64,000 nt of DNA from an uncultured Gammaproteobacteria bacterium (GTDB taxonomy: Bacteria > Patescibacteriota > Microgenomatia > UBA8517): assembly GCA_964540475.1 (NCBI GenBank), contig CAZIMC010000001.1, positions 269,240 through 333,239 of the forward strand. Reading direction: 5' to 3'. Each line of letters begins with the position of its first letter. The first letter of the stretch is position 1. The translations under genes and the position numbers were made by a program. The notes beneath the pieces were generated by a model. That model was not told the DNA's origin, ran no database searches, and saw only the letters and a program-made list of their open reading frames with translations. This document shows, piece by piece, positions 9,279 to 61,343 of the stretch.

Positions 9279-9349
9279 TAAGTTTGGAAAAAGCTATATT
9301 TCAAAATTGTATATGTCAAGTGGTCTGAGTTTTTGATAAAAATAATAAT

Positions 9350-16107: not shown

Positions 16108-16118
16108 TTTCAAACTTA

Positions 16119-31351: not shown

Positions 31352-31402
31352 CTCGTGCCTGTTAAAAAGTGAGATGTGTAAACCCATATCACCCGGAAGG
31401 CG

Positions 31403-42071: not shown

Positions 42072-42107
42072 TAAACCAATTTATCAATTATTTCCCAGTC
42101 AAGCAAT

Positions 42108-43214
42108 TTGGGGTACTATTGTTATAGTATGGCAGTTGTTAAATTTACCAAATACTCCGTGCTTTTAACGATTGCATTTATGCTCTTGGGGGCATTTACT
42201 TATTCGCTTCACACTCGGCTTGTAAATGTTGAAAGGCGCTTCGGGGGAATTGAAAAATTAAAATGTAATGAGGAGGATGTCAGAAAACTAATGCAAGAAA
42301 GTGTTGTCAGGGTAATCGGGGCGTACGGGGAAGGTTCCGGTTTTCCAATATCAGAAAAAGAAATCTTAACAAATTTCCATGTAATTGACGGTGAGCCAAC
42401 CCCAAAGGTTGTCTTTTCGGACGGAACATTTGAGACAGTTAAAAGAATACGGGGAAGTAAGAAAAAAGACGTTGCCATTTTGGAGGTTGAAAGAGCCCTT
42501 ACGCCACTTTCGTTTTATGGATTCTACGGGAATGCTCTTCTTTCCGCGGACCCCACCTTTGGTGAACCAATCTATACCGCCGGGTTCCCCCTCGGGTCAG
42601 ATTTGGTAGGTGATGTAACCGTTAAAAAAGGTTCGTACGGCGGAAAAAGATACTTAAAAGAGCTGGATATGACAGTGGTTCAGACGGAAATTAGCTTAAA
42701 TGGCGGAATGAGTGGAGGGCCGTTGGTTAATTCCTGCGGGCAAGTCCTGGGGGTTAACTTGTCAGGCCTTTCCGGCCTCTCGCTTTTCCTTGATATGGTC
42801 AGTGTTCAGAACTCATTTGGCGATTATACAACCGATGATGTAGCAAAAATTACAATAGATTTATCCTCTCCGGAAGGAACTGTAGAAGCTTTTTATACAC
42901 ATATAAGAGCAAGGGATTTAAAAAACGCATACGAGTTAATTTCCAGTGAGAGAAAAGCCACAATTCAATCATTTGAACAGTGGACCGAAGGTTACAACCA
43001 GACATTACACGTTGAGCTTTTGTCAGCAATTCCGGATGAAGAAGACGAGAATTTAATTTTTGTTAAGTTAGTTTCTCAAGATTGGGTTAACGGCGAGCTT
43101 GTTTTTAAATACTTTGAAGGAACATGGCAAGTGGTTAAAGAAGACAGCTTATATAAATTAAACCAAAGCAATATCAAGGAAATTGCGGAACCCTCCTGGG
43201 AGTGGTTTAGATAG
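42108..43214 (+). CDS. Trypsin-like serine protease (S1 family), membrane-anchored, with C-terminal extra domain
   Basis: Catalytic triad context: ...TNFHVI... (His), ...DVAILEV... (Asp), ...GGMSGGPLV... (Ser). Confidence 0.75.
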   Translation: MGYYCYSMAVVKFTKYSVLLTIAFMLLGAFTYSLHTRLVNVERRFGGIEKLKCNEEDVRKLMQESVVRVIGAYGEGSGFPISEKEILTNFHVIDGEPTPKVVFSDGTFETVKRIRGSKKKDVAILEVERALTPLSFYGFYGNALLSADPTFGEPIYTAGFPLGSDLVGDVTVKKGSYGGKRYLKELDMTVVQTEISLNGGMSGGPLVNSCGQVLGVNLSGLSGLSLFLDMVSVQNSFGDYTTDDVAKITIDLSSPEGTVEAFYTHIRARDLKNAYELISSERKATIQSFEQWTEGYNQTLHVELLSAIPDEEDENLIFVKLVSQDWVNGELVFKYFEGTWQVVKEDSLYKLNQSNIKEIAEPSWEWFR

Positions 43215-43245: not shown

Positions 43246-43653
43246 CTAGCCTTCCAAACTTTTTCTTGCCATTACCAGTTTGTAGTTTTCAATGACCTTT
43301 TTATTATATTTAATGTATGTAGTTAATACCCGTTTCATCAATTCCCTCTCTTTAGCAACCTCAAATTTTGCAACTGTTTCTCGTATATCTTCCTCGTCTA
43401 TCATTAGCTTGCCGTAATAATGCTGGTTCACATACCGCACGGCATATTTTAGGGGAACTCTGGCAAGCCATTCCTGTCGAGACTCATTTTTCGATTTTAC
43501 CGGAGCCGGATCAATGAGATTTAAAAACTTAAACCAGTAACTCCTAATTTTCTTTTTCATTAAGTTTAATATTACCTCTGAGCAAGGCAATAATCTATCA
43601 AACCCAAGCAATTTGGGGTAAAATACGGTCAGAATGGCCAATAAAAATCTCAC
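43246..43653 (-). CDS. Hypothetical protein (likely start at internal Met 43560, MKKKIRSYW...)
   Basis: ORF only; divergent from the methyltransferase operon. The long form would overlap the MTase start by 20 nt. Confidence 0.35.
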   Translation of the reverse strand: MRFLLAILTVFYPKLLGFDRLLPCSEVILNLMKKKIRSYWFKFLNLIDPAPVKSKNESRQEWLARVPLKYAVRYVNQHYYGKLMIDEEDIRETVAKFEVAKERELMKRVLTTYIKYNKKVIENYKLVMARKSLEG

Positions 43654-44770
43654 AAACGCAAAACGGGTAAAGAACGACGAGTTTTATACCCAGTTTCCTG
43701 ATATCCAAAAAGAAATGGAAGCGTATTTGGAATATAACCCAGATACGTTTCGAGGTAAGGTGGTCTACTGCAACTGCGATGATCCTTTTGAGAGCAATTT
43801 TTTTAGATATTTTGCGCTTAATTTCAAACGTCTCAAGTTAAAAAAACTAATCACAACAAGCTATAAAGGCTCGCCAGTTGCCTTCACTCAGTCTGCCATT
43901 CCTGGAACGGGAGTCACTGATCAAGAAGCTGCAAGACCAAAGGGTCGTTCTACTAAAGCTGTGGCGTATGAAATAACAACTGTTGGGGATTTTAATAATG
44001 ACGGAGAGTTTAACAGTGAAGATATTAATTATCTTCTTACTCATCCTCAAAATTTATCAAAAGAACTGCATGGAAATAGCATTTACTCCGCTGGAGATTT
44101 CAGAAGCGATGAATGCATATTACTCTTGAAGCAGTCAGACATTGTGGTTACCAACCCACCATTTAGTCTTTTTAGAGAGTATGTTAAACAACTGTTTGAA
44201 CACAACAAAAAGTTTTCAATAATTGCCAGTTTAAATGCCATTACATATAAAGAACTATTTCCACTTATAAAAGAAAATAAAATGTGGCTGGGTAGAGGTT
44301 TTAATGCAGGTAACGCTTATTTTTTGACACCAAACGTCAGAGATTTTGCATTAGGTGTTTATGATGAGAAAACGGGACTTGTGAAGTTTCGCAACTGTCA
44401 CTGGTTTACAAATTTGGATCACGGAAAGCGACATACTCCATTAAGATTGTCTACAATGGAAGATAACCTAAAGTTCAGAGACGATAAACTAAGAGCGAAA
44501 AATGCTTATGAAAAATACGACAACTATGACGCCATAGAAGTGCCATTTACCGATGCCATACCAAGTAATTATTCTGGAGTAATGGGTGTACCAATCAGTT
44601 TTTTAGATAAATACAACCCCGAGCAGTTTGGGATAATTGGTGGTACCGCAAACGGTTTAGTGCCTGTGGAGTTTAAAATTGGGGATTTCAAGGTGTATAA
44701 CAATCCTATTATAGGCAATAGAAAAGTATTTCAACGGATTCTTATAAAACACAAAAACCCAAAATCATGA
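43634..44770 (+). CDS. DNA N6-adenine methyltransferase, EcoRI-methylase-like family
   Basis: N-terminal ...KNDEFYT... and catalytic motif IV NPPF (VVTNPPFSL), characteristic of the M.EcoRI-like family. Confidence 0.65.
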
Positions 44771-45936
44771 AAACTACACTTTGGACAAATACTACAGTGC
44801 GAGAAGTGGTTGACGGCTTCGAGTATAACGAGCTTGAGGGAAAGGGTTTGTTCGGGCTTACAGGCAAACTTACCATCCAGCCGGAATACCAACGTAATTA
44901 TATTTATGCCAGTGACGGTGGGAAGCGCGAGCAGGCAGTTATAGAATCTCTTCTTAAAGGCTACCCAATTGGACTTATTTATATTAATAAATTAAAAACA
45001 GATAAGTACGAAGTTTTAGATGGCCAACAACGCATAACGAGTATCGGCAGGTTTGTAACTAACAAGTTTGCCATTAAGGATGAATACGAACATGAGCAGT
45101 ATTTTAGCGGCATGGCAGAAGATAAACAGGCAAAAATTATGGAAGCAAAACTGTTGATCTATGAGTGCATGGGAACGGAAAGTGAAATAAAAGAATGGTT
45201 TAAGACAATTAACATTGCAGGCGTGCCGCTCAATGAACAGGAACTGTTAAATGCCGTTTATTCGGGTCCGTTTGTAACTAAGGCCAAAGAAGAGTTCAGC
45301 AATAGCCAAAATTCACATATTTATAAATGGGGGTCATATATTAATGGTGTAGCTAATAGGCAAGACTTTTTGGCAACTGCTATTGAGTGGGTAAGCCGCG
45401 GAGAAGTGGGAGAATACATGAGTCGTCACCGCTATGATGACAATATTGAGGAGCTTATAACACATTTCAACACTGTAATTGACTGGGTTTCTGGCGTGTT
45501 TGCCGACGTCGAAAAAGAAATGAGGGGACTGCCGTGGGGAAGATTATATGATGAGTATCATAAAAAATTTTACGATCCGGAAAAAGTATCTGAGCAAGTG
45601 CAACATCTTTATGGCGACCCCTATGTCAAAAACCGCAGGGGTATTTTTGAGTATGTACTGGGTGATTCGAAAGACACCAAATTACTTGAAGTGCGAGTGT
45701 TTGACGATGCTACTAAAAGAGTCGTATACGAAAAGCAAACAAAGATGGCCAATGCCAAAGGGGTAAGTAATTGCCCATATTGTGCTATAGGAAATGATGC
45801 GAACAAGACAAAGGTGTGGCAGATTTTTGAAATGGATGCCGACCATGTTGCGGCTTGGAGCAAGGGTGGCGAGACAAACATAGAAAATTGCCAAATGCTT
45901 TGCAAGACACACAATCGCGTAAAAGGAAACCGATAA
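44767..45936 (+). CDS. DUF262 (ParB-like nuclease/NTPase, DGQQR motif) + C-terminal HNH endonuclease fusion
   Basis: ...[12 protein letters not shown]... DUF262 signature; C-terminal ...CPYCA...[27 protein letters not shown]... HNH (His-Me finger). ATGA overlap with the MTase stop. Confidence 0.65.
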
Positions 45937-45994
45937 CATACAGAAAACAAGATAGCTAAAGTCAATTAGAATAGGAAAATTAAACAATAATTTT

Positions 45995-46408
45995 ATGAGG
46001 GAAGAAAATAAGCGAAAGCACCTTGAATTTATACAAAACACAATTAGCAGGATGTCGGGCAATTTGTTTTTTCTCCGTGGCTGGACAGTAACACTAATTA
46101 CTGCGATGTTTGCCCTGTTTGTTAAGGATGCTAATCAGCGCTTTATTTTTGTAGCCTATATACCCCTGCTTGTCTTTTGGATGTTAGATGGCTACTTTTT
46201 GTCTCAAGAAAGATTATTCCGGGCATTATACGAACATGTACGCAAACTGCCGCAAGAAAGGATAGATTTTTCAATGGACACCACCAAGTATCGAGGCCAC
46301 CGCGGAAACAGCTGGCTAGCTGCCATCTTGTCTCACACTTTGCTAATGTTCTACCTTCCGTTCTTTGTATTGTTGGTGGGAATAACATATTGGTTATGCA
46401 AGGACTAA
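45995..46408 (+). CDS. Small multi-TM protein (2-3 TM; SLATT-like architecture), candidate membrane effector
   Basis: 137 aa. N-terminal amphipathic region, then hydrophobic helices GWTVTLITAMFALFV, FIFVAYIPLLVFWMLDGYFL and LAAILSHTLLMFYLPFFVLLVGITYWL. 3' end overlaps the TIR gene start by 13 nt. Confidence 0.5.
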   Translation: MREENKRKHLEFIQNTISRMSGNLFFLRGWTVTLITAMFALFVKDANQRFIFVAYIPLLVFWMLDGYFLSQERLFRALYEHVRKLPQERIDFSMDTTKYRGHRGNSWLAAILSHTLLMFYLPFFVLLVGITYWLCKD

Positions 46409-46905
46409 ACGCAAAAAGACAGGTTTTCTACAGTTTTCACTACAAACCTGACTGTTGGCGCGCAGCCCAGGTTCGCAGCATTGGTGTGATTGAGGGCAAC
46501 AGGCCTGCTCCAGATAATGACTGGGAAGAGATAAAAGGCGCGGGCGAGGATGCAATCAGACGCTGGATAAACAAACAATTGGAGTATAGGTCTTGTACAC
46601 TAGTATTAGTTGGAAGCGAAACAGCCAACAGGAAGTGGATAAACTATGAAATAGTTGAGTCTTGGAACAGAGGCATGGGGGTGGCGGGAATTTACATTCA
46701 TGGTTTAATGGACAATAACAAATTCGTTTCTCATATTGGAAACAACCCTTTTGACTATATACTTCTCGGGGGTAATATTCCTTTATCAAGTGTGGCCAAA
46801 TGTTACAACCCAATAGGTGCAAATAGCAAAGAAATATATGATTGGATATCTAGAAATATATCTGCTATGGTTGAAGAAGCAATAACCATAAGATCAAAAT
46901 ATTAA
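46396..46905 (+). CDS. TIR-like domain protein, ThsB-like (DUF1863/TIR_2 family)
   Basis: Blocks colinear with Thoeris ThsB: RQVFYSFHYKPD, CTLVLVGSETANRKWINYEI (contains the candidate catalytic Glu), GIYIHGL, GNNPFDYILLG. True ATG at 46396; the upstream part of the listed 46177 ORF overlaps the previous gene in another frame. Confidence 0.65.
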   Translation: MQGLNAKRQVFYSFHYKPDCWRAAQVRSIGVIEGNRPAPDNDWEEIKGAGEDAIRRWINKQLEYRSCTLVLVGSETANRKWINYEIVESWNRGMGVAGIYIHGLMDNNKFVSHIGNNPFDYILLGGNIPLSSVAKCYNPIGANSKEIYDWISRNISAMVEEAITIRSKY

Positions 46906-47019
46906 GTGTTGTAGTTTATTTACTTTATACTACCCCAATTAGCTAAAAAGGCAGTGCACCAATAATTTTCGAGTCTGGCTAGCTTCAATGCTGATCCTTT
47001 GTGACATATTCGTTTCTAG

Positions 47020-47048
47020 TTGACTCAATGTTGCAATTAAAATATTAT
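47020..47048 (+). promoter_or_regulatory. Near-consensus sigma70 promoter TTGACT-17-TATTAT
   Basis: ttgact 47020-47025, tattat 47043-47048; about 35 nt upstream of a small ORF with a strong RBS. Confidence 0.45.
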
Positions 47049-47082
47049 TTAGCCAAATTAAACCCGAAAAGAGGTGGTTAAT

Positions 47083-47217
47083 ATGGCGCATCCAAAAACT
47101 ACGAGTAGAAGAGTGGCTAGAAGTGCCTCTAAGGTGCTTAGAGGGAATTACAGCAGAGTAGCAAAATCTGCTGCTGGCAGCGCTCTTTCTCAAAAACACA
47201 GCAGAAAGCGAAAGTAA
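47083..47217 (+). CDS. Small highly basic protein, 44 aa (not in ORF track)
   Basis: MAHPKTTSRRVARSASKVLRGNYSRVAKSAAGSALSQKHSRKRK; RBS agaggtgg 6 nt upstream; consensus promoter upstream. Confidence 0.4.
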   Translation: MAHPKTTSRRVARSASKVLRGNYSRVAKSAAGSALSQKHSRKRK

Positions 47218-47220
47218 TTT

Positions 47221-47448
47221 ATGAGTATTAAAAAGTGCATAAAGTGTGGGTCTTTTATTGCTGTAACCATGTTATCAGTGTCGGCCTCTTATTATTGCAA
47301 TAACATCTGGTGCAAAAATGATGATCAGCCGTCTGATCCTTATGGTAGCCAATATAATATTGATACAACCATTAAAACATCAGTATCTAGTACAGCATCT
47401 TCGGCATCTACAACTATTTTGCCTTTCATACCATTAAAGGAACTTTGA
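47221..47448 (+). CDS. Small Cys-containing protein (CxxC...CxxxxC), 75 aa, hypothetical
   Basis: Starts 3 nt after the previous small ORF; ...CIKCG...YYCNNIWC... then a Ser/Thr-rich tail. Confidence 0.35.
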   Translation: MSIKKCIKCGSFIAVTMLSVSASYYCNNIWCKNDDQPSDPYGSQYNIDTTIKTSVSSTASSASTTILPFIPLKEL

Positions 47449-47507
47449 CTTCTTAAAAGCAAGAACCGTAGAATTGTTTGTGGTGATAAAATAAATGTTA
47501 GGTGATA

Positions 47508-47594
47508 ATGAAATCTACTTTAATTGGGATATCAATTCTTTTGGCGGCCGCAATAATTGCTTTGCTTTCCTGGACCGACAAAAAATCCAAATAA
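47508..47594 (+). CDS. Tiny hydrophobic peptide, 28 aa (single TM), hypothetical
   Basis: MKSTLIGISILLAAAIIALLSWTDKKSK; RBS aggtga 5 nt upstream of the ATG. Confidence 0.3.
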   Translation: MKSTLIGISILLAAAIIALLSWTDKKSK

Positions 47595-47666
47595 CTTTAA
47601 GGGTCAGGACTTTTGTTATCCGCATTTAATTGCTTTCTTTAGCAATTCACGGTAGAATCGGGGTAA

Positions 47667-48314
47667 TTGCCTATAGCTTCTATGAAAAAACTGTTCTTCG
47701 ATATTGAAACGCTTCCTCTTGAAAAAGACAAGCACCATATCTTAAAAGAGCTTCACGAAAAAATGCTTGATGACGGAAAGAAAAAAGATTTTGAAACTCT
47801 TCTTTCAGAAACTTCATTTGACGGCGGTTTCGGGAGAATTGCCTGCATCAGTTATGCAGTTAACGACGAGCCGGTTGCAACATTGCGGGGAGACGAAGTG
47901 CAAATGCTAAAAAAGTTTTGGGAGATTGTGAAGGACTGTGATTTATTTGTTGGCTACAACATTTTCAGTTTTGATCTGCGCTTTTTATACCAAAGATCGG
48001 TGGTTTTGCGTGTTCAACCGAGTAAAGAGCTTAGTTTTGCAAGGTACAGGAATAACCCGATTTTTGACATTATGTGTGAGTGGGCCAAGTGGGACAGCCG
48101 AAATAATATAAGTATGGACCGTTTGGCTAGAGTGTTGGGGCTTCCTACCTCCAAAGGCGGCGAAGTTGAAGGGAAAAATCTGGCAAAGGCTTTTGAAGAC
48201 GGGAAAATTGACGAGATTTGTGAGTACTGCGAAAAAGACGTTGAACTGACAAGAAAAATTTATAAAAGAATGATTTTTGAGGACGAACCCACCCAAAACG
48301 AAATACCGTTTTGA
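47667..48314 (+). CDS. DEDDy-type 3'-5' exonuclease (RNase H-like, YprB/COG3298-like)
   Basis: Exo I LFFDIETLPL, Exo II FVGYNIFSFDLRFL, Exo III YCEKDVELT (Y-x3-D). Confidence 0.6.
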   Translation: MPIASMKKLFFDIETLPLEKDKHHILKELHEKMLDDGKKKDFETLLSETSFDGGFGRIACISYAVNDEPVATLRGDEVQMLKKFWEIVKDCDLFVGYNIFSFDLRFLYQRSVVLRVQPSKELSFARYRNNPIFDIMCEWAKWDSRNNISMDRLARVLGLPTSKGGEVEGKNLAKAFEDGKIDEICEYCEKDVELTRKIYKRMIFEDEPTQNEIPF

Positions 48315-48925
48315 TCTGGCTTTACATGCAAGATTTCACAAAGGACCCAGAGTATATTAAGGCAAGGAGGGAATTTAGCAGAAAACTTCGTTTTAGTAAA
48401 AAGTTTCGCGACAACCTTAGAAAGAGCGCTTTGGAATTGGAGACATATGGCCTAAAGGGATTAGAGATTAACGAAAAAATTCCCAGTAACCTTTGGAAGG
48501 GGAAAGATACAATAATGTTTGAGACATTTTTAGACTTGTCTCAAAAGTTTCTAGAAAGCATAAAAAATTGCGAAGATGATGCGAAAAAGGACTCGATAAG
48601 ATTCAAAAAATATCAGTTTTATAAAAAGAAAAACGGTAAAAGCATAATAATCAGATGCACATTCTATAAAGTTTACGAGAAGAAAAGTAAAATTGCCTGC
48701 TTTTATTTTGAAGATGGTTTGAAGAAAAATAAGCGATTGAAGGGTGTAAGGTACAGAAGAAGCATGTCAACAAAAGGTTATGAGTTTATTGATGAGGGAA
48801 AGTTTAGATACAAACACAGAGATATTGACCATTTCATATATATTTTTGAAGGGAGAAAAACATACGAAATCAAGATTTCTGCCAGAGACAACAAGAAAGA
48901 TAAATTTTGGATTGAGCTGTTGTAA
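48311..48925 (+). CDS. Hypothetical Lys-rich protein
   Basis: ORF 204 aa, very K-rich, low local GC; start overlaps the exonuclease stop. Confidence 0.35.
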   Translation: MIWLYMQDFTKDPEYIKARREFSRKLRFSKKFRDNLRKSALELETYGLKGLEINEKIPSNLWKGKDTIMFETFLDLSQKFLESIKNCEDDAKKDSIRFKKYQFYKKKNGKSIIIRCTFYKVYEKKSKIACFYFEDGLKKNKRLKGVRYRRSMSTKGYEFIDEGKFRYKHRDIDHFIYIFEGRKTYEIKISARDNKKDKFWIELL

Positions 48926-49014
48926 TTAAGGTTTTTGATATGTTTTTCTTTATAGAGCCAGATTTTGCCTCTAACTTTAGGATTGAAGTATAATATCTCC
49001 TATAGTTCACACTT

Positions 49015-49908
49015 ATGCAGAGAGAAAGATCAGTTTGGGAAACTTTCCAAAGAAGGATGGCGCGGTTAGATGCGCGGATGGAGGCGTGGAGTAAAAGATT
49101 AGAAGAAGCAGATAATAGAAATAGAGAAATACATTTGTACGGCAAAGAAGTAAAGCATCGTGACAGGTGGAATTCTGAAACCTTCCATGAATATCTTTTT
49201 GCCGTAAATCGTGACAAGAATTATTTAATGCCACAGGCAGACTATCCGGACCAAATTGAGCTGGGGCGAGAATGGCATGCTGTGTTTAATCAAATGAGGC
49301 AAGAAACGCAAGACGGCTATGAGAGAATTTCCGTTCAAGGCGTAATGCAGAATTCCAGGCAAGTAGTGCTGGGTAAAGTAGATGTTGGTAAAAAGCATTT
49401 TGTTCCTGGAGATTTAATTTTCAGACTTAGAAAAAATCTAATTCACGATGGAGCAGACAATACTCTTTCAGATGTGCATACACATCCTAGAAAGTTGTGG
49501 CGAAGTGAATTTTTATCCATACCCGATGATACTGATGGCAGATATAGTCAGAGAACTGCAAGTTTTTCCGCCGGAGACTTGTATTGTCTAGCCGAACTTC
49601 GAATTCCGCATTTTTTTATGGGTTTAATTGACGGCCATTGGAATTATTTGGCTTTTAGATCCCGAGAAACCTTATCCACTAATTTGCATTATCTCCGAGG
49701 CGGGAGTCAAGAGGATTTTGCTAGGCATTGGTATAGGATGGTGGGTTTTGACTATACACCACATGATTATGATAAGGACCAAAGCGGTAAGCTTAAACCA
49801 TTTGCCGTTGATGCCAACATTCGAAGATTAACTCCTTTGGTAGCATCAAGACACAATCTGGTGGTTTATGCAGGAAGGCCAAACCGCGATTTGGAGTGGT
49901 ATTACTAG
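49015..49908 (+). CDS. Hypothetical protein with HxH...S..D (JAMM/MPN-like?) metal motif
   Basis: ...SDVHTHPRKLWRSEFLSIPDD...; spacing deviates from the canonical JAMM HxHx7Sx2D (here x10), so the assignment is tentative. Confidence 0.35.
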   Translation: MQRERSVWETFQRRMARLDARMEAWSKRLEEADNRNREIHLYGKEVKHRDRWNSETFHEYLFAVNRDKNYLMPQADYPDQIELGREWHAVFNQMRQETQDGYERISVQGVMQNSRQVVLGKVDVGKKHFVPGDLIFRLRKNLIHDGADNTLSDVHTHPRKLWRSEFLSIPDDTDGRYSQRTASFSAGDLYCLAELRIPHFFMGLIDGHWNYLAFRSRETLSTNLHYLRGGSQEDFARHWYRMVGFDYTPHDYDKDQSGKLKPFAVDANIRRLTPLVASRHNLVVYAGRPNRDLEWYY

Positions 49909-49956
49909 TTTTGAAGCATTCAGCTATAGTAGCGGCTTTGAAGGTATAATAAATTA

Positions 49957-50607
49957 ATGCTTGGGGTTTTGGCTTTTTTCATTTTACTTTTAACTCTTTA
50001 TATTCTTTCCAGGATTTTTATACAGAGACTGTTTATTTTTCTTTTCAGAATTTTTAAGACCCGAGAACGGGCAACATTCGTTTTAGGTTTAATATTTTTG
50101 CCAGGAACATTTATTCATGAAATGGCTCACTTTTTGATGGCTTTATTTTTGCTGGTCCCTGTTGGGAGAATAAATTTAATGCCGGAAGTGCAAGAGAGGG
50201 GAATTAAATTGGGGAGTGTTGAAGTGGGAAAAACAGACTTTTTGCGTGGGTCGCTAATTGGAATGGCTCCGTTAATTGTTGGCATTGGAATAATATTTTT
50301 TATAATTTCGAATGCGCTTTCGTATGGGTTACTGACAGCCTGGTGGGTTACCCCGTTACTAATATATTTAATATTTCAACTGACACACACCATGTTTGCA
50401 AGCAGGACCGATACCAGAGCGCTTCTTGAGCTTTTAGTATTTTTAATAATTGTTTGCGCATTTTTACTCCTTTTCAAAATTTATACACCCTTCACCTTTT
50501 TACTTGCCAAAACTCAGGATGCAGGTCAACTTTTGCAGCGTCTATCCGTGCTTTTACTAATTCCCATAGGGGTTGAGATAACTTTCCTTGCTATGTTTAG
50601 AAAGTAA
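49957..50607 (+). CDS. Polytopic membrane protein with intramembrane HExxH (zinc metalloprotease-like)
   Basis: ...GTFIHEMAHFLMA... inside a hydrophobic helix; 6 TM. Confidence 0.45.
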   Translation: MLGVLAFFILLLTLYILSRIFIQRLFIFLFRIFKTRERATFVLGLIFLPGTFIHEMAHFLMALFLLVPVGRINLMPEVQERGIKLGSVEVGKTDFLRGSLIGMAPLIVGIGIIFFIISNALSYGLLTAWWVTPLLIYLIFQLTHTMFASRTDTRALLELLVFLIIVCAFLLLFKIYTPFTFLLAKTQDAGQLLQRLSVLLLIPIGVEITFLAMFRK

Positions 50608-50660
50608 CGCAAGCATTTTGCCCTTTTGCATTTAAATCTTTGGGTGTAAAATGCTAGCTT

Positions 50661-51005
50661 ATGAGGAGAGAAAGAGGGGACAGGTTAAGCGAACAAGCAC
50701 TTGCCTTTGTTAGCCGATTGACTACCGGTAAAACCTTTGTACTTGACATGAATGACACTGGAGTGGAGTCAATGGTCAAGATATTGGCCCTTAGCAGAAT
50801 GAATGGTTGTGTTAAGCGTGTACCGTCAGACGGAAAGGCAACATACAGGAAGGTTTTTGATATAGATGCATTATTAAGAGAACTTATTTTCCAGGCAGTT
50901 CACCGGCACAGGAACATTCCTGCCAGTTGCAACAAATGCCCTTTTTCCAGAAGTAATTGCCCAATGCTGTCCCAATTGCAAGATATTATTAAAGGTATTT
51001 CCTGA
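50661..51005 (+). CDS. Hypothetical protein (Cys cluster near C-terminus)
   Basis: ORF 114 aa; ...CNKCPFSRSNCP...; slightly higher GC than the surroundings. Confidence 0.3.
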   Translation: MRRERGDRLSEQALAFVSRLTTGKTFVLDMNDTGVESMVKILALSRMNGCVKRVPSDGKATYRKVFDIDALLRELIFQAVHRHRNIPASCNKCPFSRSNCPMLSQLQDIIKGIS

Positions 51006-51029
51006 TATAATTTGTTTACGGAAGTTAAA

Positions 51030-51371
51030 TTAATACCTGTACCTATTGGCTCTGCGTCTAATTTTCTTTCCTCCCGTTTTTAACTCACCATCCCTTGCTC
51101 CGCTAATATGAGTACTAGGTCTACCATTTCCGGCTGCAAAAGCCTGAAATATTTGTGCGTTTGTTGCGCCGGGGTGTTCTTTACGGAATTCTTCAATTAC
51201 TCTTCGTGCCTCCTCACGGTCTCCAAAAAAACGATATAGATGTCTGGCAAGTCTTGAAGGATGGATATCGTCAGGCGGATCTTCTGCTGGTGGCGGGCCA
51301 CCGATCCCGATTGATATTTGGAGATCGAAACTAAGTCTCAGGCGCGTTTTGTCATTTTCCCTTTCCGCCAT
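51030..51371 (-). CDS. Hypothetical protein
   Basis: ORF 113 aa, only minus-strand gene in this stretch; no motif. Confidence 0.3.
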   Translation of the reverse strand: MAERENDKTRLRLSFDLQISIGIGGPPPAEDPPDDIHPSRLARHLYRFFGDREEARRVIEEFRKEHPGATNAQIFQAFAAGNGRPSTHISGARDGELKTGGKKIRRRANRYRY

Positions 51372-51553
51372 CCTAGTAATATAGCATTTGGAAACTTTAT
51401 GGTAAACAATTACTATGGCCTCAAATTAAACATGCCAGACGTGTGGTGTGTTTAGCAGTTTTGTACTTTGACACACCCTGCACCCTAGACAAGCAAGCAT
51501 TAATCCTTTAGTCTGTTTATTGTGATTAGGAATAGAGAGGAGGTGAATAATTA

Positions 51554-52489
51554 ATGAATATTAAGAAAATTTTGACATCCTCAATGATTGGTGTTTTCGT
51601 ACTCGTATTTTCAGCGGGAGTAGTTCTTGCGACTACTTTGAGCTCAACCGATTTTGAAGGATTTACCACTGGAGTTAGCGTGGATGGACAAGGCGGATGG
51701 TCGTCTGCCCCCAAGTGGGATGAAGATATTGTAGATGACGCTGGCAACACAGTATGGCGTATATCAAACGCAGTCTTCGCTGGTAGTTTTGGCGATATGC
51801 CGTTTGCACCCAGACCTGGCGGATTATCCATGACTAGCGCTGATCCCGTAGGAGGAAACCCCCAGTATTTTGCTGGAGAAAGCTCTACCGGAGCTGACAA
51901 TACAGAGTTCTTTGGGAGTTTTGACTTTAAGTCATCTACTGGAGCACCACAACCTGGACTCAGAATTACTGTTAGCGCAGATAATGGGCAGGGAGGTAGG
52001 CAATCATTTTTCTCTATAGAAGATAATGGATCTACAGGGTTAAATGTAACTACATTTAATGTCTTGCCAGATGGATCCTTCGATGGCCCCATCACAATAG
52101 CTGAAGATCTTTCTTACACAGACTGGCATTCAGTAGGAGTAGATTTGGAGTTCATTGACGGACCATCAAATGATGTAGTTAGATATTTTGTAAACGACTC
52201 TCTAGTTCATACCGATACTAGCTGGGAACAGTTTTACACAAATCATCAGCCAGCATTACATCCATTAGGAGTACCCGTTCAGACTTTACTCTTTAGGATT
52301 TCTAGTGGAACATCAACTGATGTCACTGGTGACGGATTCTATATCGATAATGTTCACACAGGAATTGGACTTTTTAGTATAGACCCAGAGACAATAGATG
52401 ACTGTAAAAATGGTGGTTGGGAAGCTTATGGCTTCAGCAATCAAGGGCGATGTATTCAATTTGTGAATACAGGGAAAGATAGCAGATAA
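51554..52489 (+). CDS. Secreted hypothetical protein (signal peptide, Gly/Ser/Thr-rich)
   Basis: Strong RBS aggaggtga 7 nt upstream; N-terminal signal MNIKKILTSSMIGVFVLVFSAGVVLA; followed by a clean rho-independent terminator. Confidence 0.55.
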   Translation: MNIKKILTSSMIGVFVLVFSAGVVLATTLSSTDFEGFTTGVSVDGQGGWSSAPKWDEDIVDDAGNTVWRISNAVFAGSFGDMPFAPRPGGLSMTSADPVGGNPQYFAGESSTGADNTEFFGSFDFKSSTGAPQPGLRITVSADNGQGGRQSFFSIEDNGSTGLNVTTFNVLPDGSFDGPITIAEDLSYTDWHSVGVDLEFIDGPSNDVVRYFVNDSLVHTDTSWEQFYTNHQPALHPLGVPVQTLLFRISSGTSTDVTGDGFYIDNVHTGIGLFSIDPETIDDCKNGGWEAYGFSNQGRCIQFVNTGKDSR

Positions 52490-52538
52490 GTTGAAAACTA
52501 ATTTTACTTACTTGTAAGTAAAATTCAACTTTAATAGT

Positions 52539-52574
52539 GGGCTTGGTTAGGAAAAAACCAGGCCCGCTTTTTTC
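52539..52574 (+). terminator. Rho-independent terminator (gggcttggtt-aggaaaa-aaccaggccc + gcttttttc)
   Basis: 10-bp GC-rich stem with one mismatch plus a U-tract, 50 nt after the stop of the secreted-protein gene. Confidence 0.75.
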
Positions 52575-52596
52575 TATTATCCTGTATTATTGAATA

Positions 52597-52980
52597 GTGG
52601 AAATTGAGGACGAGTTTACAAATTATGTTAATAAAGCCTTAGAAGAGCTTCCGGCCGAATTTAAAGAAAAGCTTGATAACGTAAATATTTTTGTTGAGGA
52701 TTACCCCACCCGTGAACAATTTGTGAAACTTCGGATGCGCCCGGAGCACACCTTACTTTTGGGTTTATATGAGGGCATACCGCAAACAAAAAGAGGAAAT
52801 TACGGACAAGGAGTATTACCCGACAAGATCACACTATTTAAAATGCCAATTTTGTCTCTTGCCCAAAACCGTGAGCATCTGGTCCAGCTAATCAAAGACA
52901 CGCTTTTTCATGAAGTTGGTCATCATTTCGGAATGAGCGAAAAAGAAATAAGAGATGCCCAAAGCAAACGGACTTACTGA
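52597..52980 (+). CDS. Metallopeptidase family protein (zincin-like, DUF1025-type)
   Basis: C-terminal HEVGHHFGMSEKEI matches the family signature. Confidence 0.6.
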   Translation: MEIEDEFTNYVNKALEELPAEFKEKLDNVNIFVEDYPTREQFVKLRMRPEHTLLLGLYEGIPQTKRGNYGQGVLPDKITLFKMPILSLAQNREHLVQLIKDTLFHEVGHHFGMSEKEIRDAQSKRTY

Positions 52981-53330
52981 AGCTGAACGCTAATACTTAA
53001 TAAAAACTCCGGAAGGATTTGGGTTAAAAGAATTATAAGAAGAAGTGTAACGCTTTGTAATGCAATTCTTTTATAAAGGGGAAGAAGCGCTTTTTGATCG
53101 CTTTCTTCAATTGAAACTGCAAGTTGGGCCAGATTTCTAAATACCACAAAAAATCCGTAAGCAAAAAGAAGTATTAAAAAATGGCTCACGAATGGTTGGA
53201 AGGTTGTTGTATAGGTTCTTGCAAAATTGGCAGCAAGGGATGCAAGCCTTAGGAAAATAAATACATTTAGCCAAAAGAGTCCGGCTTTATATAGAAAGTT
53301 TGCGATATTATTTTCGTTTTTTTCCTTCAT
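52974..53330 (-). CDS. Hypothetical membrane protein (3 TM)
   Basis: ORF 118 aa, hydrophobic. Confidence 0.35.
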   Translation of the reverse strand: MKEKNENNIANFLYKAGLFWLNVFIFLRLASLAANFARTYTTTFQPFVSHFLILLFAYGFFVVFRNLAQLAVSIEESDQKALLPLYKRIALQSVTLLLIILLTQILPEFLLSISVQLQ

Positions 53331-53542
53331 CTTTCTTTTTTTGAATAGTTTCTTTAATAACCGTTAAGAAAAGTCCCATTCCGGCCCCGCCGCTAATTGT
53401 TGCCATTTTAATAAAATCCAAAGTTTGAACTGAGCAGCCGCCTGCGAGGTTACAAACGGGAACTGTTGTAATGTTACAAACCCCACACATATAAACAATT
53501 TTAACACAACAATTAAAACGTCATTTGTTATCCAATTGTTAT

Positions 53543-54586
53543 TTAATGCTTAGATTTTCTACCGATCTTAACATTTCGTTTTTTTAGATATTCTGTTAAT
53601 AATATAATTGTAGCCTGAAGTTGTGTCTTTTCATCCACTTTTGCAGGAGCGTTGTATTTATATCCTGCGTCAATCGGCACTTCTCTTGACCGGCCCAAAT
53701 ATCCTCTTTCGTAAGTTGATATGGCATACTCAAGTGCCCTAGAAAACAATCCTTCAGGCAAACCAGGAGCCAAGTCTACATTTTGAATTCGTTTGGATAC
53801 CATAAATGCTCTTGCATATCGTGATGCGTTATCTTCTAATTGCAATACTTCAGTACCAACCGATGAGACCATGCTCGTAAACTCGCTTAAATATCTTTTT
53901 AATTTGTTCGGAATATTTTTTTGCAATTCAATTAAACGTAATTGCGCCGATATCTTTGCAACATATTTCACCAATCTGTCCTCATTGATATATTTTCTAT
54001 ATGCATTTGGGTTCATTTGACTATCATACCAATGACCCATCTCGTGTAAAAATATTACTATACCTGCTCTCATTCCTATAAGACGAGAGAATTTTGCTAA
54101 ATCACCGAACATGATAATTTGTGCTTCGGAGTCACATGCGTTTATCAAAGTTGGAGAATAGATACAGTCCACCTCGGGGTTCAATTCTTCGATTAAATCT
54201 ACAGTGTACCCGTTCTGCCCTACTACGTATAAATTTTCAAGTTGGTAACTGTGAGGCGAGCTTTTGTCTGCATCGATAACAGCTATTGTGCGTGCCCCAT
54301 CCGGGGTGGGCTGCTCGATAAATAAGTGTCTTCTTATCTTGCCATTTTCGACATATTCGCCGTATGTATATGATGCGTTTTCAAAAGGTAATGCCCTGAG
54401 TGAATTACTTAGTTCAGAGGGAGATTTACTTAACCCCTCACCCCATTTGTAAGCGGTAAATTTTTTGTGCCCCATGGCCTCCATTGGCGAAGAATAATTG
54501 GTAGATTTTATTTCGACGTTCCCGATGTTTAATACAATATAATCAGGATTTAAATGCTGAGAATTTTGCTCATTAACCTCTGACAT
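53543..54586 (-). CDS. Hypothetical HExxH zinc-metallopeptidase-like protein
   Basis: ...GIVIFLHEMGHWYD...; no other family signature recognised. Confidence 0.4.
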   Translation of the reverse strand: MSEVNEQNSQHLNPDYIVLNIGNVEIKSTNYSSPMEAMGHKKFTAYKWGEGLSKSPSELSNSLRALPFENASYTYGEYVENGKIRRHLFIEQPTPDGARTIAVIDADKSSPHSYQLENLYVVGQNGYTVDLIEELNPEVDCIYSPTLINACDSEAQIIMFGDLAKFSRLIGMRAGIVIFLHEMGHWYDSQMNPNAYRKYINEDRLVKYVAKISAQLRLIELQKNIPNKLKRYLSEFTSMVSSVGTEVLQLEDNASRYARAFMVSKRIQNVDLAPGLPEGLFSRALEYAISTYERGYLGRSREVPIDAGYKYNAPAKVDEKTQLQATIILLTEYLKKRNVKIGRKSKH

Positions 54587-54611
54587 AAGTTAATTATACA
54601 ATGAGAAAACT

Positions 54612-54645
54612 GTGTGAGGTTGGGAGGTCTCAACCTCACACGTTT
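54612..54645 (-). terminator. Perfect 10-bp inverted repeat (tgtgaggttg / caacctcaca) downstream of the minus-strand GNAT gene
   Basis: Hairpin between the GNAT stop (54655) and the upstream gene's start. Confidence 0.4.
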
Positions 54646-54654
54646 ATTGTGCCC

Positions 54655-55298
54655 TTACGGGAAGATCACTTTCTCTCGCGCGAGTGCAAGAGCGATCTTG
54701 GCCCGATTGAGCCCTTCATGGTACATGTTTGGCATGCCCTCAGGAAACAGAAACTCTGTTCGTTCTGGGTGCAGCCAGCAAAGAAGGTACGTGTCGATAA
54801 ATCGACCTTCGCGATACCCTGTTCGTGGTTCCATGCCGATCATGTTGTATCCGACACGCAGTAATGCTTTAAGGGACGCAGGGTTTTCGGTGCGGACGGA
54901 ACTTTTAATCGTCAACCGATTCAAGTAATCCGCCGCAAAGAGCGTCCTTCCCAGGTGCGCCCTGCTGGCAACCCCTTTGCCCCACCAACCTTGGTTCCAG
55001 ATTATGATTCCACTACTTGCGGAACCGAACCTGTCATCGATATGGTGGAGCGAGGTTATGCCGATTGCGGTTTCTGCCCCGTCAGGTTGGATAATCCAAG
55101 TGCAACTGCTCTGGTCTTTCCTGTTCTTCTCGTACCACTCCTCCTCGTTTTCCAGTGATTGCGCAAACAAACCATTTGTGTACATGTGTACACGCATGGA
55201 GTTGAATGCGAGACCAGTACGGGCAAATCAGCCTTGCACAATGGCCTCAGATTAACTGCAAAGCCGTCCAACTCGATACGCATGGTGATCCCGAACAT
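54655..55298 (-). pseudogene. GNAT (RimJ/RimL-like) N-acetyltransferase, frameshifted (or sequencing error)
   Basis: N-terminal part MFGITMRIELDGFAVNLRPLCKADLPVLVSH... in one frame, with RBS aaggag 8 nt upstream of ATG 55298. The remainder ...LFAQSLENEEEWYE...GIIIWNQGWWGKGVASRA... is in another frame. The frames switch near the tandem heptamer gtgtacaTgtgtacaC (about 55185-55200). Locally elevated GC. Confidence 0.55.
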
Positions 55299-55601
55299 CT
55301 TGTTCTCCTTTTTAACTAGTGTGTAAATGTACCAGCCCAACAAGGCGGCCTCCTTTTGTTTGCCTTTAGATTATTGGGCTAGTTAAAGCACCAAGAAGAA
55401 CTAATTGGGGACTTAGCTAGAAGTTTATGCCACGACACCAATAATCCCGTTTAGCGAGATTTGTTAACACGCCCCTGAAGGGCCATAATTGGTGTATGGC
55501 AATATTCCATTACACTCTATATAGTATGGCAAGTAGTCCCCAAAGTCAAACTATAGGTGTATCTATCTAAATTCCAGTTAATTTGTTAAAATACGTCTTA
55601 T

Positions 55602-55650: not shown

Positions 55651-57471
55651 ATGGATCAAAGAATAATCAATATTGCTGTAATTGCCCACGTTGACCATGG
55701 TAAAACAACTTTGGTTGACGCGCTTTTAAAACAAACTCACGTTTTCCGCGAAAACGAGGAGGAGATGGGCCAATCTCAAATTCTCGACCGAAACGAATTG
55801 GAACGTGAACGGGGGATTACAATCTTAGCTAAAAACTGCGCCATCCGTTACGGGGATTACAAAATTAATATCATAGATACTCCTGGCCACGCGGATTTTT
55901 CAGGGGAGGTTGAGCGAACTCTTGGTATGGCGGACGGGGCACTATTAATAGTAGATGCTCAGGAAGGGCCAATGCCCCAGACTCGGTTCGTTTTGAAAAA
56001 GGCATTGGAACTTGGGCTCAAAGTTATTGTTGTTATCAATAAAATTGACAAAACCTTTGCAAAGCCTGCGGAAGCGCTAGCTAAGGTGGAGAGCTTGTTT
56101 TTGGAAATTGCGAAAGATGAGAACCAATTGGATTTCCCGGTTTTATATGCAATTGGAAGACGAGGGGTTGTTTATAACACCCTACCCAGTGATTTTGAAG
56201 CACCTGGTGATGTAACAGCCCTTCTTGAAACGATAGTTGCCAGTGTTCCCCAAGCTCCGCAAAACCCCGAGAGTTTTAAAATGATGGTTACCTCATTGGA
56301 ATACGATTCCCACATAGGCCGCCTTGCAGTCGGCAAAGTTCAACAGGGAGAAATTACAAAAGGAATGAAAGTTATTCTAACGGACAATCCGAGTAAAGTT
56401 TTTACGGTTGAAAAATTGTTTGTTTATGAGGGCTTAGGAAAAGCGGAAGTGCGGGTGGCCAGAAGTGGTGAAATAGTTTGCTTTGCCGGAGTAACGGATG
56501 TAAAAATTGGGGGTACCATTGCAACGCCCGGGGATACGCAAGGTCTTCCAGTCGTATTTATTAGTGAGCCCACACTGCATATGACTGTCGGGCCAAATAC
56601 TTCACCTTTCGCAGGACGAGAGGGGGAATTTGTTACAAGCAGGCAAATAGATGAAAGATTAACGCGTGAACTTGAACACAATTTAAGCCTTCGGCTTGAA
56701 AGGCTGGGAAATGGGAAATTTGTAATTTCCGGGCGCGGCGAACTTCACCTTTCGGTGCTTTTAGAAACAATGAGACGAGAGGGATATGAGATGGAGGTGG
56801 GCAAACCTGAGGTTATTATTAAAGTTGTGGATGGGGTAACCCAAGAGCCTTTTGAGGATGTATCAGTAGTAGTTACAAATGAATTTGTAGGGGTTGTGAC
56901 TGAAGAATTTGGAAAGCGGTATGCGGATCTTGTAAACATGAGCCCGATTAGCGAAACGGAAGTTGAGTTTATTTTTCATATGCCGACACGCGCATTAATC
57001 GGCCTTCGAAGTCATTTACTTACGGCGACAAAAGGAACAGTTATTTTTAATTCAAGCTTTGCAGGATTTGAAAAGAAAGGCAAAGACGTTCCCAAGATCA
57101 GGCGCGGTGCCTTAATTGCAGATCAGGCAGGGGAGGCGTTGGCTTATGGGCTTAATAACGCCCAAGGGAGGGGGATTACTTTTATTGATCCGGGTACGCA
57201 AGTTTATGAGGGAATGATAGTTGGAGTAAATGCTAAAGACGAGGATATTACCCTTAACATTTGTAAAGGTAAAAAGCTTACCAACATGCGTTCAAAGTCT
57301 TCGGATGGCGTAATCCAACTTACTCCGGCCACAAAGCTTTCATTGGAGCAGTCGTTGGATTTTTTGGAAAAAGACGAGCTTTTGGAAATTACACCTAAAG
57401 CTCTGAGGCTTAGAAAAAAATACCTCACAGACTTCGAAAGAAGAAGATTTAGCAGGTCAGTAAACGCCTAA
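55651..57471 (+). CDS. typA: Translational GTPase TypA/BipA
   Basis: N-terminal NIAVIAHVDHGKTTLVD, DTPGHADF, NKID; about 600 aa EF-G-like architecture typical of BipA. Confidence 0.9.
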   Translation: MDQRIINIAVIAHVDHGKTTLVDALLKQTHVFRENEEEMGQSQILDRNELERERGITILAKNCAIRYGDYKINIIDTPGHADFSGEVERTLGMADGALLIVDAQEGPMPQTRFVLKKALELGLKVIVVINKIDKTFAKPAEALAKVESLFLEIAKDENQLDFPVLYAIGRRGVVYNTLPSDFEAPGDVTALLETIVASVPQAPQNPESFKMMVTSLEYDSHIGRLAVGKVQQGEITKGMKVILTDNPSKVFTVEKLFVYEGLGKAEVRVARSGEIVCFAGVTDVKIGGTIATPGDTQGLPVVFISEPTLHMTVGPNTSPFAGREGEFVTSRQIDERLTRELEHNLSLRLERLGNGKFVISGRGELHLSVLLETMRREGYEMEVGKPEVIIKVVDGVTQEPFEDVSVVVTNEFVGVVTEEFGKRYADLVNMSPISETEVEFIFHMPTRALIGLRSHLLTATKGTVIFNSSFAGFEKKGKDVPKIRRGALIADQAGEALAYGLNNAQGRGITFIDPGTQVYEGMIVGVNAKDEDITLNICKGKKLTNMRSKSSDGVIQLTPATKLSLEQSLDFLEKDELLEITPKALRLRKKYLTDFERRRFSRSVNA

Positions 57472-58514
57472 TTCTTTAAATGCTTATCAAAGAAGGCTAT
57501 TGAGCGTTGCATTGCTAGGCTAAAATTTTGACTGATATTATGATCGTCCCCGCGGTATGTATATATTTCGACTTCTTTGCCTACTGTGCGCATTTGCTCG
57601 GCAAGTTTCTCGGAAAACTCAACAGGGACGGAAGTGTCGGAAGTGCCGTGGTGGAGCTGAAGCGGTCCCGAGATCTCATGTAAGTAATTGTTGGCAGATA
57701 TAGAATTCCAAAATGTCGGGTTTTGCTCGGGGGAGCCAAATGTTTGCGTTAATTCATCTCTCCACCTTCTAGCCTGAGGCAATAAGGTTGGTGCGGGAGT
57801 TGGTGAAGGTCTATTTCTGCGCCAGTTATTTAATAAGTCCTCATATGAGGCAACGACTCCCGCCCAGATTACCCCAGCTTTAACATCTTCTCTTACAACC
57901 ATATTCCTAAGCGTTATATAACCGCCCATTGAATGTCCCCACATACCAATTTTTTCCGGGTTAACGTCTTCGTGATTTTTTACCGCTGATACAGCATTAA
58001 TGACATCGATTGTGTAGCTGTTACTGCCGTAGCCTCCTCGAGCGTCCCCTTCGGAATTTCCATGACCGCGGTAGTCGGACCTAAAAACTACATATCCATT
58101 TCTTGCAAAACCATCAACGTAGGCTACGTACCTTTCTGTGGTTCTATACTGTGCAGGGGGAATATATCCATGATTAAAAATAATCGCCGGAAACCCACCT
58201 TCCGGTTTAGTGGTATTAGGAACAGTTAAAAGGCCATAAATTTTTAAGCCCTCAGATTGGTAGCTTGCAACATACCTGCTATAGTTACTTCCAGGGCTTA
58301 AGACCTCTTCAATCAAAAGCTCACTCTCCGGGAAATTTGCTTTTCTTAAGTATTCAATCGACAGCGGATGAAGCTCCAACAATTTTTCCTGAATTGGTGC
58401 GGCAATATTTTGCGTTAGCCTTGAGAGATTTTGATTGAAACTATTTCGTCTTAAAGAATATGCAGTAAGTAGGGTAATTGCTGCCAATATTACAAATACA
58501 GACCACTTTTTCAT
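57468..58514 (-). CDS. Secreted alpha/beta hydrolase (S9 peptidase/dienelactone hydrolase-like)
   Basis: Signal peptide; nucleophile elbow GMWGHSMGGYITL; C-terminal ...HGTSDTSVP... (Asp/His region). Confidence 0.65.
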   Translation of the reverse strand: MKKWSVFVILAAITLLTAYSLRRNSFNQNLSRLTQNIAAPIQEKLLELHPLSIEYLRKANFPESELLIEEVLSPGSNYSRYVASYQSEGLKIYGLLTVPNTTKPEGGFPAIIFNHGYIPPAQYRTTERYVAYVDGFARNGYVVFRSDYRGHGNSEGDARGGYGSNSYTIDVINAVSAVKNHEDVNPEKIGMWGHSMGGYITLRNMVVREDVKAGVIWAGVVASYEDLLNNWRRNRPSPTPAPTLLPQARRWRDELTQTFGSPEQNPTFWNSISANNYLHEISGPLQLHHGTSDTSVPVEFSEKLAEQMRTVGKEVEIYTYRGDDHNISQNFSLAMQRSIAFFDKHLKN

Positions 58515-58563
58515 TTCATTAATTATACTTGAGTATGTAAAGGTGGTATCATTTTAAACTTCA

Positions 58564-60120: not shown

Positions 60121-60144
60121 GTAAAGTCTATGCTAGCATGAATA

Positions 60145-61274: not shown

Positions 61275-61343
61275 ACTATCCGCATCGACAATATCGGGAT
61301 TGACTTTTAGCAGTTGGGGTGCTAGACTGCTAGAACATCGAGC

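Follow-up and report, generated by a model that had tools for sequence, protein, structure and literature searches.

A 12-kb block upstream of typA in a Microgenomates-like Patescibacteria chromosome is likely a patchwork within a fluid tRNA-Gln–typA interval

We analyzed a block of about 12 kb (43,246–55,350) that lies between the gene for an S1 protease and typA in a 64-kb stretch of contig CAZIMC010000001.1, hereafter the window, whose numbering is used throughout. A reading made from the letters only (the sequence-only reading) had described this block as an accessory island flanked by housekeeping genes, devoid of core functions, mosaic in composition, and consistent with several independent acquisitions. 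Our data point to a different arrangement, in which the block is likely the right half of a fluid 24-kb interval between tRNA-Gln and typA, that is, a patchwork and not one mobile element. In such a patchwork, a defense islet of about 3.7 kb (43.2–46.9 kb) would consist of two self-contained, horizontally acquired modules, namely a restriction-modification (R-M) pair and a pair made of a transmembrane (TM) and a TIR protein, while a separate high-GC gene for a GNAT acetyltransferase would have inserted alone beside typA and would now be decaying. The middle ~8 kb (47.6–54.6 kb) is probably composed of lineage-typical genes, either vertically inherited or locally reshuffled.

The window, with an overall GC content of 40%, is assigned on the evidence of its TypA protein to a Patescibacteria (Microgenomates/Woesebacteria-like) chromosome of the candidate phyla radiation (CPR) without a close sequenced relative. 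This TypA shares 70–75% identity with those of Woesebacteria, Amesbacteria, and other Microgenomates-type Patescibacteria, and 51–55% with those of other phyla. Outside the block, the window encodes housekeeping functions (SecDF, aminoacyl-tRNA synthetases, TGT, Lon, RecJ, and RNase P RNA). The 14 block proteins looked up were all singletons at 90% identity in a collection of 15 billion proteins, which again indicates that a close relative is lacking, and exact matches to ten of the proteins in the same collection independently confirmed their gene boundaries. The exact TypA and a Lys-rich block protein had no entry in the gene-position index. All open reading frames (ORFs) of the window were compared with 160 related typA loci from genomes and metagenomes (labeled L001 and so on), and domain and family assignments were drawn from Pfam, PADLOC, PHROG, Rfam, ARAGORN, AlphaFold2 (AF2) models, and Foldseek searches of PDB. 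On the basis of Pfam, PADLOC, and the motifs and signal peptide in the translations, the gene list first proposed for the block, that is, an R-M pair, a TM+TIR pair, a DEDDy exonuclease, a Lys-rich protein, three HExxH-type proteins, a possible JAMM-like protein, a secreted protein, and a frameshifted GNAT, proved essentially right.

Synteny located the boundaries elsewhere. The tRNA-Gln(CTG) gene (31,281–31,352, + strand), called by both ARAGORN and Rfam, and typA/bipA (55,651–57,471, +) are 24.3 kb apart in the window (31,352 to 55,651). Close loci were those with a TypA identity of at least 60% and an upstream sequence of 3 kb or more; of these 43 loci, 19 carry tRNA-Gln 0.8–7.8 kb upstream of typA (median 3.6 kb), as compared with 1 of 65 in distant lineages. 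The L006 locus runs collinear with window positions 22.6–31.2 kb, continues with tRNA-Gln, and reaches typA after 2.3 kb; next come a homologue of the gene for the membrane HExxH protein (49,957 in the window) and then the genes of window positions 59.7–61.3 kb. The same upstream block occurs in L082, with tRNA-Gln 3.5 kb before typA, and the distance amounts to 5.8–7.8 kb in L001, L005, and L024, where mutS, mutL, and an RRM protein gene lie in between. The gene for the membrane-anchored trypsin-like S1 protease (42,129–43,214, +; Pfam Trypsin_2, 2e-20) adjoined typA in none of the 160 related loci, where its vicinity held no orthologue either. The check for adjacency elsewhere therefore came out against an island flanked by housekeeping genes; tRNA-Gln and typA are the syntenic landmarks, and the expanded interval between them includes the S1 protease gene.

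The left half of this interval (31.4–43.2 kb) encodes DUF2200, OmdA, two NUDIX, UDG, SpoIIM, DEAD-box helicase, YdjM, and hypothetical proteins, and the helicase gene is found near typA in 10 loci. Interval content differed in every relative, which indicates that synteny in the clade is generally low. An identical run of 17 nt (39,045/39,820) occurs in two adjacent genes of the left half (38,629–39,330 and 39,401–40,108; 233 and 235 aa), which are probably tandem paralogues without a Pfam family. Just outside the interval, a small gene for a toxin-like DUF4258 protein (30,848–31,174) is the conserved left neighbor of tRNA-Gln in L006, L082, and L088 (62–72% identity). When the 58 ORFs beyond the block (1–41,100 and 57,468–63,782) were scanned with PADLOC, 69 family matches resulted, each to a single member, led by PDC-M05A (1.8e-31), BrxHI (1.9e-27), and the REase_II model ‘Type II nicking endonuclease’ (4.8e-15), which are mostly, in all probability, generic helicase, Lon, or AAA domains.

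The alternative that fares best, although we hold it to be rather unlikely, is that of one discrete 12-kb accessory island between the S1 protease gene and typA, assembled from several acquisitions. It would account for the presence of two mobile defense modules and a foreign GNAT in the same block, for the scarcity of homologues of most block genes near typA in the related loci, and for the 500-bp GC values of the block, which are the most heterogeneous of the window (standard deviation 0.038 versus 0.030 elsewhere; Levene p = 0.11). Yet two block genes are conserved as typA neighbors in relatives, as set out below, and composition is uniform save for 0.7 kb: GC content is 0.395 in the block and 0.402 elsewhere in the window, and tetranucleotide distances in 3-kb windows range from 12.2 to 17.8 and from 11.5 to 19.2, respectively. 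The proposed mosaic composition thus stood for the elevated GC at 54.6–55.3 kb, whose GNAT gene is an outlier, but not for the block mean or its tetranucleotides, which match the window. Neither did the low-GC patch at 48.3–48.9 kb hold as a mark of acquisition, since the Lys-rich ORF at this site combines a normal GC content at third codon positions (GC3, 0.405) with low GC1 and GC2, a pattern that reflects lysine codons and does not betray a foreign origin. The claim of several independent acquisitions survives insofar as more than one acquisition did contribute accessory genes to the block (the plasmid-like modules and GNAT), but not as a single 12-kb island.

The single-island reading is also at odds with the missing machinery. 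Pfam domains of integrases or recombinases were absent from the scanned ORFs of at least 70 aa between 26 and 58 kb; the earlier statement that no integrase or transposase is recognizable likewise held for ORFs of at least 100 aa in the same range. A copy of the tRNA-Gln 3′ end, which could serve as an attachment (att) site, was not found at 21 or more of 30 matching nucleotides within 31.4–56 kb, flanking direct repeats were missing, and the block yielded neither tandem repeats nor Rfam matches (E ≤ 1). Integrase, flanking repeats, and distinct composition, by which classical integrase-mediated islands are recognized, are therefore all lacking. TRNA-linked genomic or defense islands likewise carry defense genes in a tRNA-bounded interval whose content differs among relatives; the window departs from them in having no integrase, att duplication, or compositional signature, in the location of the tRNA 12 kb outside the block, and in the conserved genes (DEAD-box helicase, HExxH membrane protein) interspersed in the interval.

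We consider now the evidence for the two modules of the islet. The R-M pair consists of a gene for an EcoRI-family N6-adenine DNA methyltransferase (43,634–44,770, +; PF13651, 1.7e-116; PADLOC MTase_II, 1.9e-98), with the catalytic motif TNPPF in its translation, and a co-oriented gene for a nuclease (44,767–45,936, +) that overlaps it by 4 nt at start and stop. The nuclease combines a DUF262 domain (DGQQR; GmrSD_N, 9e-22) with an HNH domain (6e-7) and matches the PADLOC REase_II model over its full length (residues 10–388; 2.1e-84). Both PADLOC models derive from REBASE, and that of the methylase is likewise covered in full. It is predicted to be the cognate restriction enzyme of the adjacent methylase in a Type II R-M system, an assignment that relies on this adjacency and on the labels of hidden Markov models (HMMs) and not on biochemistry; the modification-dependent GmrSD enzymes are otherwise the best-known bearers of an N-terminal DUF262 domain. 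The methylase would protect adenines of the host DNA, and the nuclease would cut unmodified incoming DNA.

Close relatives of this pair reside on plasmids. The nuclease is 69.5% identical to the product of a gene on the 9-kb Moraxella osloensis plasmid pSKB0120-6 and 61% identical to those of Enterococcus faecium and Phocaeicola plasmid genes. In the Moraxella and Enterococcus plasmid records inspected, an EcoRI-family methylase gene lies immediately upstream of the nuclease homologue, and these methylases share 54.5% and 44% identity, respectively, with that of the window. Within the CPR, the most similar pair, that of L037, reaches 38% for the nuclease and 48% for the methylase, and the pairing is kept in all three settings. 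The window pair thus has the two domains, gene order, and tight coupling of the plasmid Type II systems of Moraxella and E. faecium, and differs from them in its CPR host and in the lack of palindrome depletion (see below).

Some further observations concern the surroundings of these genes. L037 belongs to a distant CPR lineage (TypA identity, 54%), and its pair (7,396–9,565), a homologous methylase plus DUF262-HNH nuclease, immediately precedes typA. In a Woesebacteria genome (L009/L091, about 15,542–16,411), a lone homologous methylase gene follows typA at a distance of 5.5 kb. These cases may reflect recurrent insertion near typA or coincidence. Divergently from the window methylase, a 104-aa ORFan (43,246–43,560, −) matched only itself among 1.84 billion representatives and had no Pfam, PADLOC, or PHROG match. 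Furthermore, an exact 16-nt direct repeat, CAAGCAATTTGGGGTA, occurs at 42,100–42,115 and 43,605–43,620, each copy starting precisely 29 nt before an ATG (those of the S1 protease and the methylase) in a short divergent intergenic region. It was the only exact 16-mer repeat seen, a number within chance (1.5 expected per window); the identical offset is nevertheless odd, and the repeat could represent either a scar of recombination or a promoter or operator element common to both genes.

The second module comprises a gene for a 137-aa protein with three predicted TM helices (45,995–46,408, +; PDC-M50A, PADLOC PDLC04686, 6.1e-49) and an adjacent gene, overlapping it by 13 nt, for a ThsB-like TIR protein (46,396–46,905, +; PF08937, 4e-24; ThsB, 8.5e-66; PDC-M50B, PDLC04688, 1.1e-58). 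Both component HMMs of PDC-M50 were matched over their full length, and the pair shares adjacency and overlap with that system. PADLOC, whose run on the region had been suggested as a check, thus reported two systems (R-M and PDC-M50), its output for the rest of the block being limited to a weak generic DEDDh match. A search with the TM protein recovered homologues on 136 plasmids, whose hosts are Firmicutes, Proteobacteria, Actinobacteria, Desulfobacteria, and haloarchaea. Of these plasmids, 82 are conjugative, and conjugative plasmids of Klebsiella and Escherichia commonly carry a member of the family. A TIR gene adjoined the TM homologue in all three plasmids inspected, in either order: TM precedes TIR in the window and in Desulforapulum, and follows it in Priestia and Klebsiella. 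The Desulforapulum plasmid pair is 53% (TM) and 61.7% (TIR) identical to that of the window, whereas the Priestia partner TIR showed no detectable similarity to the window TIR. An exonuclease gene near the Desulforapulum pair raised a possible link to the exonuclease of the block, which was rejected since the two enzymes are unrelated.

The TIR protein aligned with PDB 8wcf (1e-34) and with Bacillus cereus ThsB (6lhy; 1e-18), and the catalytic Glu of the W-x-x-Y-E motif was in register (WINYE in the window protein, WVRYE in 6lhy). The closest solved structure, 8wcf, is deposited as ‘Molecular chaperone Tir’; literature searches returned no paper on it or on PDC-M50. The window TIR thus belongs to the ThsB family of Thoeris, with its catalytic Glu. 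In type II Thoeris, the effector is a TM-Macro ThsA, and the window pair likewise joins a TIR enzyme to a membrane protein. The TM partner, however, was devoid of SIR2, SLOG, and Macro domains at E values up to 5, had no nucleotide-binding domain, and matched no ThsA model, so that the pair, strictly speaking, does not count as Thoeris; at 137 aa, this partner has little room for a ligand-binding domain, and a signal-activated effector logic would be conjectural. Upon infection, the TIR protein would most likely consume or convert NAD+, or make a signal, and the three-TM partner would most likely act as a membrane-damaging effector or its anchor, leading to abortive infection.

Identities of the modules to their plasmid relatives in other phyla equal or exceed the 51–55% of TypA across phyla, which indicates that both are mobile cassettes that entered this lineage. 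We therefore regard horizontal transfer, judged by these sequence comparisons, as demonstrated only for the 3.7-kb R-M plus TIR segment, and as inferred for GNAT. The GC3 of the modules is near that of the host, implying that the acquisitions are not recent or that the donors were AT-rich. Entry would have proceeded by recombination or transformation with no resident integrase.

These identities also bear on the view that this is an ordinary, under-annotated CPR chromosome whose R-M and TIR genes are long-resident lineage genes, which we consider unlikely. All genes save GNAT are host-like in composition, the interval varies among all relatives against a background of low synteny, and the distant CPR locus L037 does have a same-family R-M pair immediately before typA. 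Nevertheless, the nuclease is 61–70% identical to Moraxella and Enterococcus plasmid genes as opposed to 38% to its L037 counterpart, the TM family is spread over 136 plasmids across bacterial and archaeal phyla, and GNAT is clearly foreign.

The middle part tells another story from that of the islet. Its genes have GC3 values within the host range. Homologues of the polytopic membrane protein with a HEMAH motif (49,957–50,607, +) are located 3–4 kb downstream of typA in L001, L005, L006, and L024 (30–44% identity), and a homologue of the small Zincin_1 metallopeptidase-like protein (52,597–52,980, +; PF06262, 2.6e-28) lies 6 kb from typA in L007 (64% identity). Conservation of these two genes near typA, in four relatives and in L007, respectively, contradicts the statement that the block contains no core functions. 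Because of such conserved neighbors, of families found in housekeeping contexts, and of the lack of defense matches (PADLOC yielded here only the weak generic DEDDh match, 4.9e-9, on the exonuclease), the middle part is not evidently imported.

Homologues of five uncharacterized block proteins were searched with the full HMMER procedure by concatenating them as one query against 1.84 billion representatives, which gave 1,631 matches at E ≤ 0.001 in total, 150 of them listed. Most of those listed map to the secreted protein (51,554–52,489, +), which has an N-terminal signal or anchor and a widespread extracellular domain, with identities of up to 60%; among the matches listed, many are single domains within proteins of 1000–2400 aa. 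The JAMM/MPN+-like putative metalloprotease (49,015–49,908, +) belongs to a family with members of ~260–280 aa and 27–41% identity, in which E103, D153, H155, H157, S185, and D188, that is, the E..HxH..SxxD pattern, are invariant in 12 homologues. No member had a Pfam (JAB) match, and the HxH-SxxD spacer is ~27 residues long versus the canonical 7. The top PDB matches of its AF2 model (pLDDT 79.8) were all JAMM deubiquitinases (AMSH, Sst2, Rpn11, and the bacterial Ubl-DUB 8tyx), with probabilities of up to 1.0, although the matches were weak (E only 2.5e-3; target-normalized TM-score 0.37–0.46). In two other Microgenomates contigs, the family occurs in a non-defense context, among gyrA, xerC-like, era, and methyltransferase genes; in L163, the JAMM-like gene adjoins those of a tyrosine recombinase and a Y1 transposase. 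The third HExxH-type protein (53,543–54,586, −; 347 aa) represents an uncharacterized family of ~340-aa proteins with invariant HExxH and E251, the downstream Glu, and its confident model (pLDDT 83) matched neither a zincin nor any other fold. The remaining genes of this part are two small convergent ORFs (50,661–51,005, +, and 51,030–51,371, −) without family matches, the former matching only itself, and one for a 118-aa hydrophobic protein (52,974–53,330, −) present in the public annotation.

Between the islet and these genes, a 760-bp gap (46,906–47,666) without Rfam or tandem-repeat match holds tiny ORFs only: 47,083–47,217 (44 aa, basic), 47,221–47,448 (75 aa), and 47,508–47,594 (28 aa) or, alternatively, 47,495–47,629. 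None was found in the 15-billion-protein collection. Three tiny ORFs behind a consensus promoter had been noted here; the ORFs do exist in the sequence, whereas the promoter did not stand out, since promoter-like matches in the region numbered 46 versus 41.3 ± 6.3 in shuffled sequences. The 28-aa ORF (+) follows a good Shine-Dalgarno sequence (AGGTGA) and encodes the hydrophobic peptide MKSTLIGISILLAAAIIALLSWTDKKSK, which resembles small membrane toxins and overlaps, in another frame, the third tiny ORF as originally drawn. The gap is followed by genes for a stand-alone PolB-type DEDDy 3′-5′ exonuclease (47,682–48,314, +; PF10108, 7.9e-18; phrog_403, 3.4e-25), with DxE, NxxxFD, and YxxxD motifs and only weak relatives on plasmids and in viruses, and, after 11 nt, for the 199-aa Lys-rich protein (48,326–48,925, +; 18% K), an ORFan with a self-match only. 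That the stretch from 46.9 to 48.9 kb (tiny ORFs, exonuclease, and Lys-rich ORFan) is a third defense or toxin module and, more broadly, that tRNA-Gln–typA is a clade-wide, integrase-independent hotspot of gene gain in Microgenomates is a proposal to which we give little credence.

The same genes could be taken as remnants of a degraded prophage or integrative element that has lost its integrase and structural genes, a very unlikely scenario. The exonuclease matches the PHROG family ‘DNA polymerase exonuclease subunit’, the block contains several ORFans and tiny ORFs, and a tRNA gene bounds the enlarged interval at its distant end. However, none of the other proteins among the ten block proteins searched had a PHROG match, scans of viral contigs gave one relative of the exonuclease at 26% identity and none of the JAMM-like protein, a repeat of the tRNA 3′ end is missing, and the ORFs scanned between 26 and 58 kb contain no capsid, terminase, or tail domains in addition to lacking an integrase.

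At the right end of the block, the GNAT gene (Acetyltransf_3; 54,655–55,298, −) shows a GC content of 0.516 and a GC3 of 0.59, as compared with 0.362 ± 0.046 for 54 window ORFs (z about +5). Elevated GC is limited to 54.61–55.30 kb, that is, to this gene and its terminator hairpin (54,611–54,642; 14-bp stem). The gene is a pseudogene with a −1 frameshift near 55,215: the N-terminal 30 residues are encoded in another frame, and the addition of one T in CATT(T)CAAC gives ...LVSHFNSMRVHMYT. We found no plasmid homologue. GNAT thus appears to be a horizontally transferred compositional alien that is decaying through frameshift. A Logan contig of 1185 bp (run SRR12404947) is 100% identical to window positions 54,286–55,464 and spans the gene, the frameshift, the junction into the low-GC neighbor 53,543, and 120 bp of the typA-side spacer; this independent assembly reproduces the previously noted frameshift base for base and argues against an assembler-specific artifact. 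A chimeric contig, with GNAT or other parts joined to it by mistake, as might be suspected from GNAT being the only strong composition outlier and from the genome being known from a single NCBI contig, is hardly credible in the face of this identity.

Several observations weigh against the patchwork and its horizontally acquired islet. tRNA-Gln was not within reach in 24 of the 43 close loci, and the related typA loci extend over flanks of 10 kb only, so that longer tRNA-Gln–typA intervals in relatives would go unseen. The nearest TypA relative in the genome and metagenome collections scanned is 75% identical, and gene presence or absence in sister strains thus does not inform the comparison. 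The R-M and TIR genes, with GC3 values of 0.33–0.48, are compositionally ameliorated; conversely, the normal composition of the middle part does not prove vertical descent, as its donors could be equally AT-rich. With regard to R-M activity, a maximal-order Markov model applied to all 4- and 6-mer palindromes in the 64-kb window uncovered no depletion beyond z = −2.1 (GAATTC, 17 observed versus 21 expected; CAATTG, 32 versus 39). Finally, PDC-M50 is a candidate system for which our literature searches found no published test, PDC candidates being defined by guilt-by-embedding only (bioRxiv 10.1101/2024.01.29.577857).

Together, these results are mainly of corrective value: most of the supposed island is not demonstrably foreign, its GC mosaic comes down to one pseudogene and one Lys-rich ORF, and its boundaries differ from those first drawn. 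The defense systems and the overall arrangement are of known types and ordinary. As by-products, the block reveals two uncharacterized families, one JAMM-like with a long insert and the other with an HExxH...E motif and a confident model without fold match. For the clade, the tRNA-Gln–typA interval emerges as a plastic spot, and for the organism, the islet provides a documented example of plasmid-borne DUF262-HNH R-M and TM+TIR modules crossing into an episymbiotic CPR bacterium with a reduced genome; both leave current understanding unchanged.

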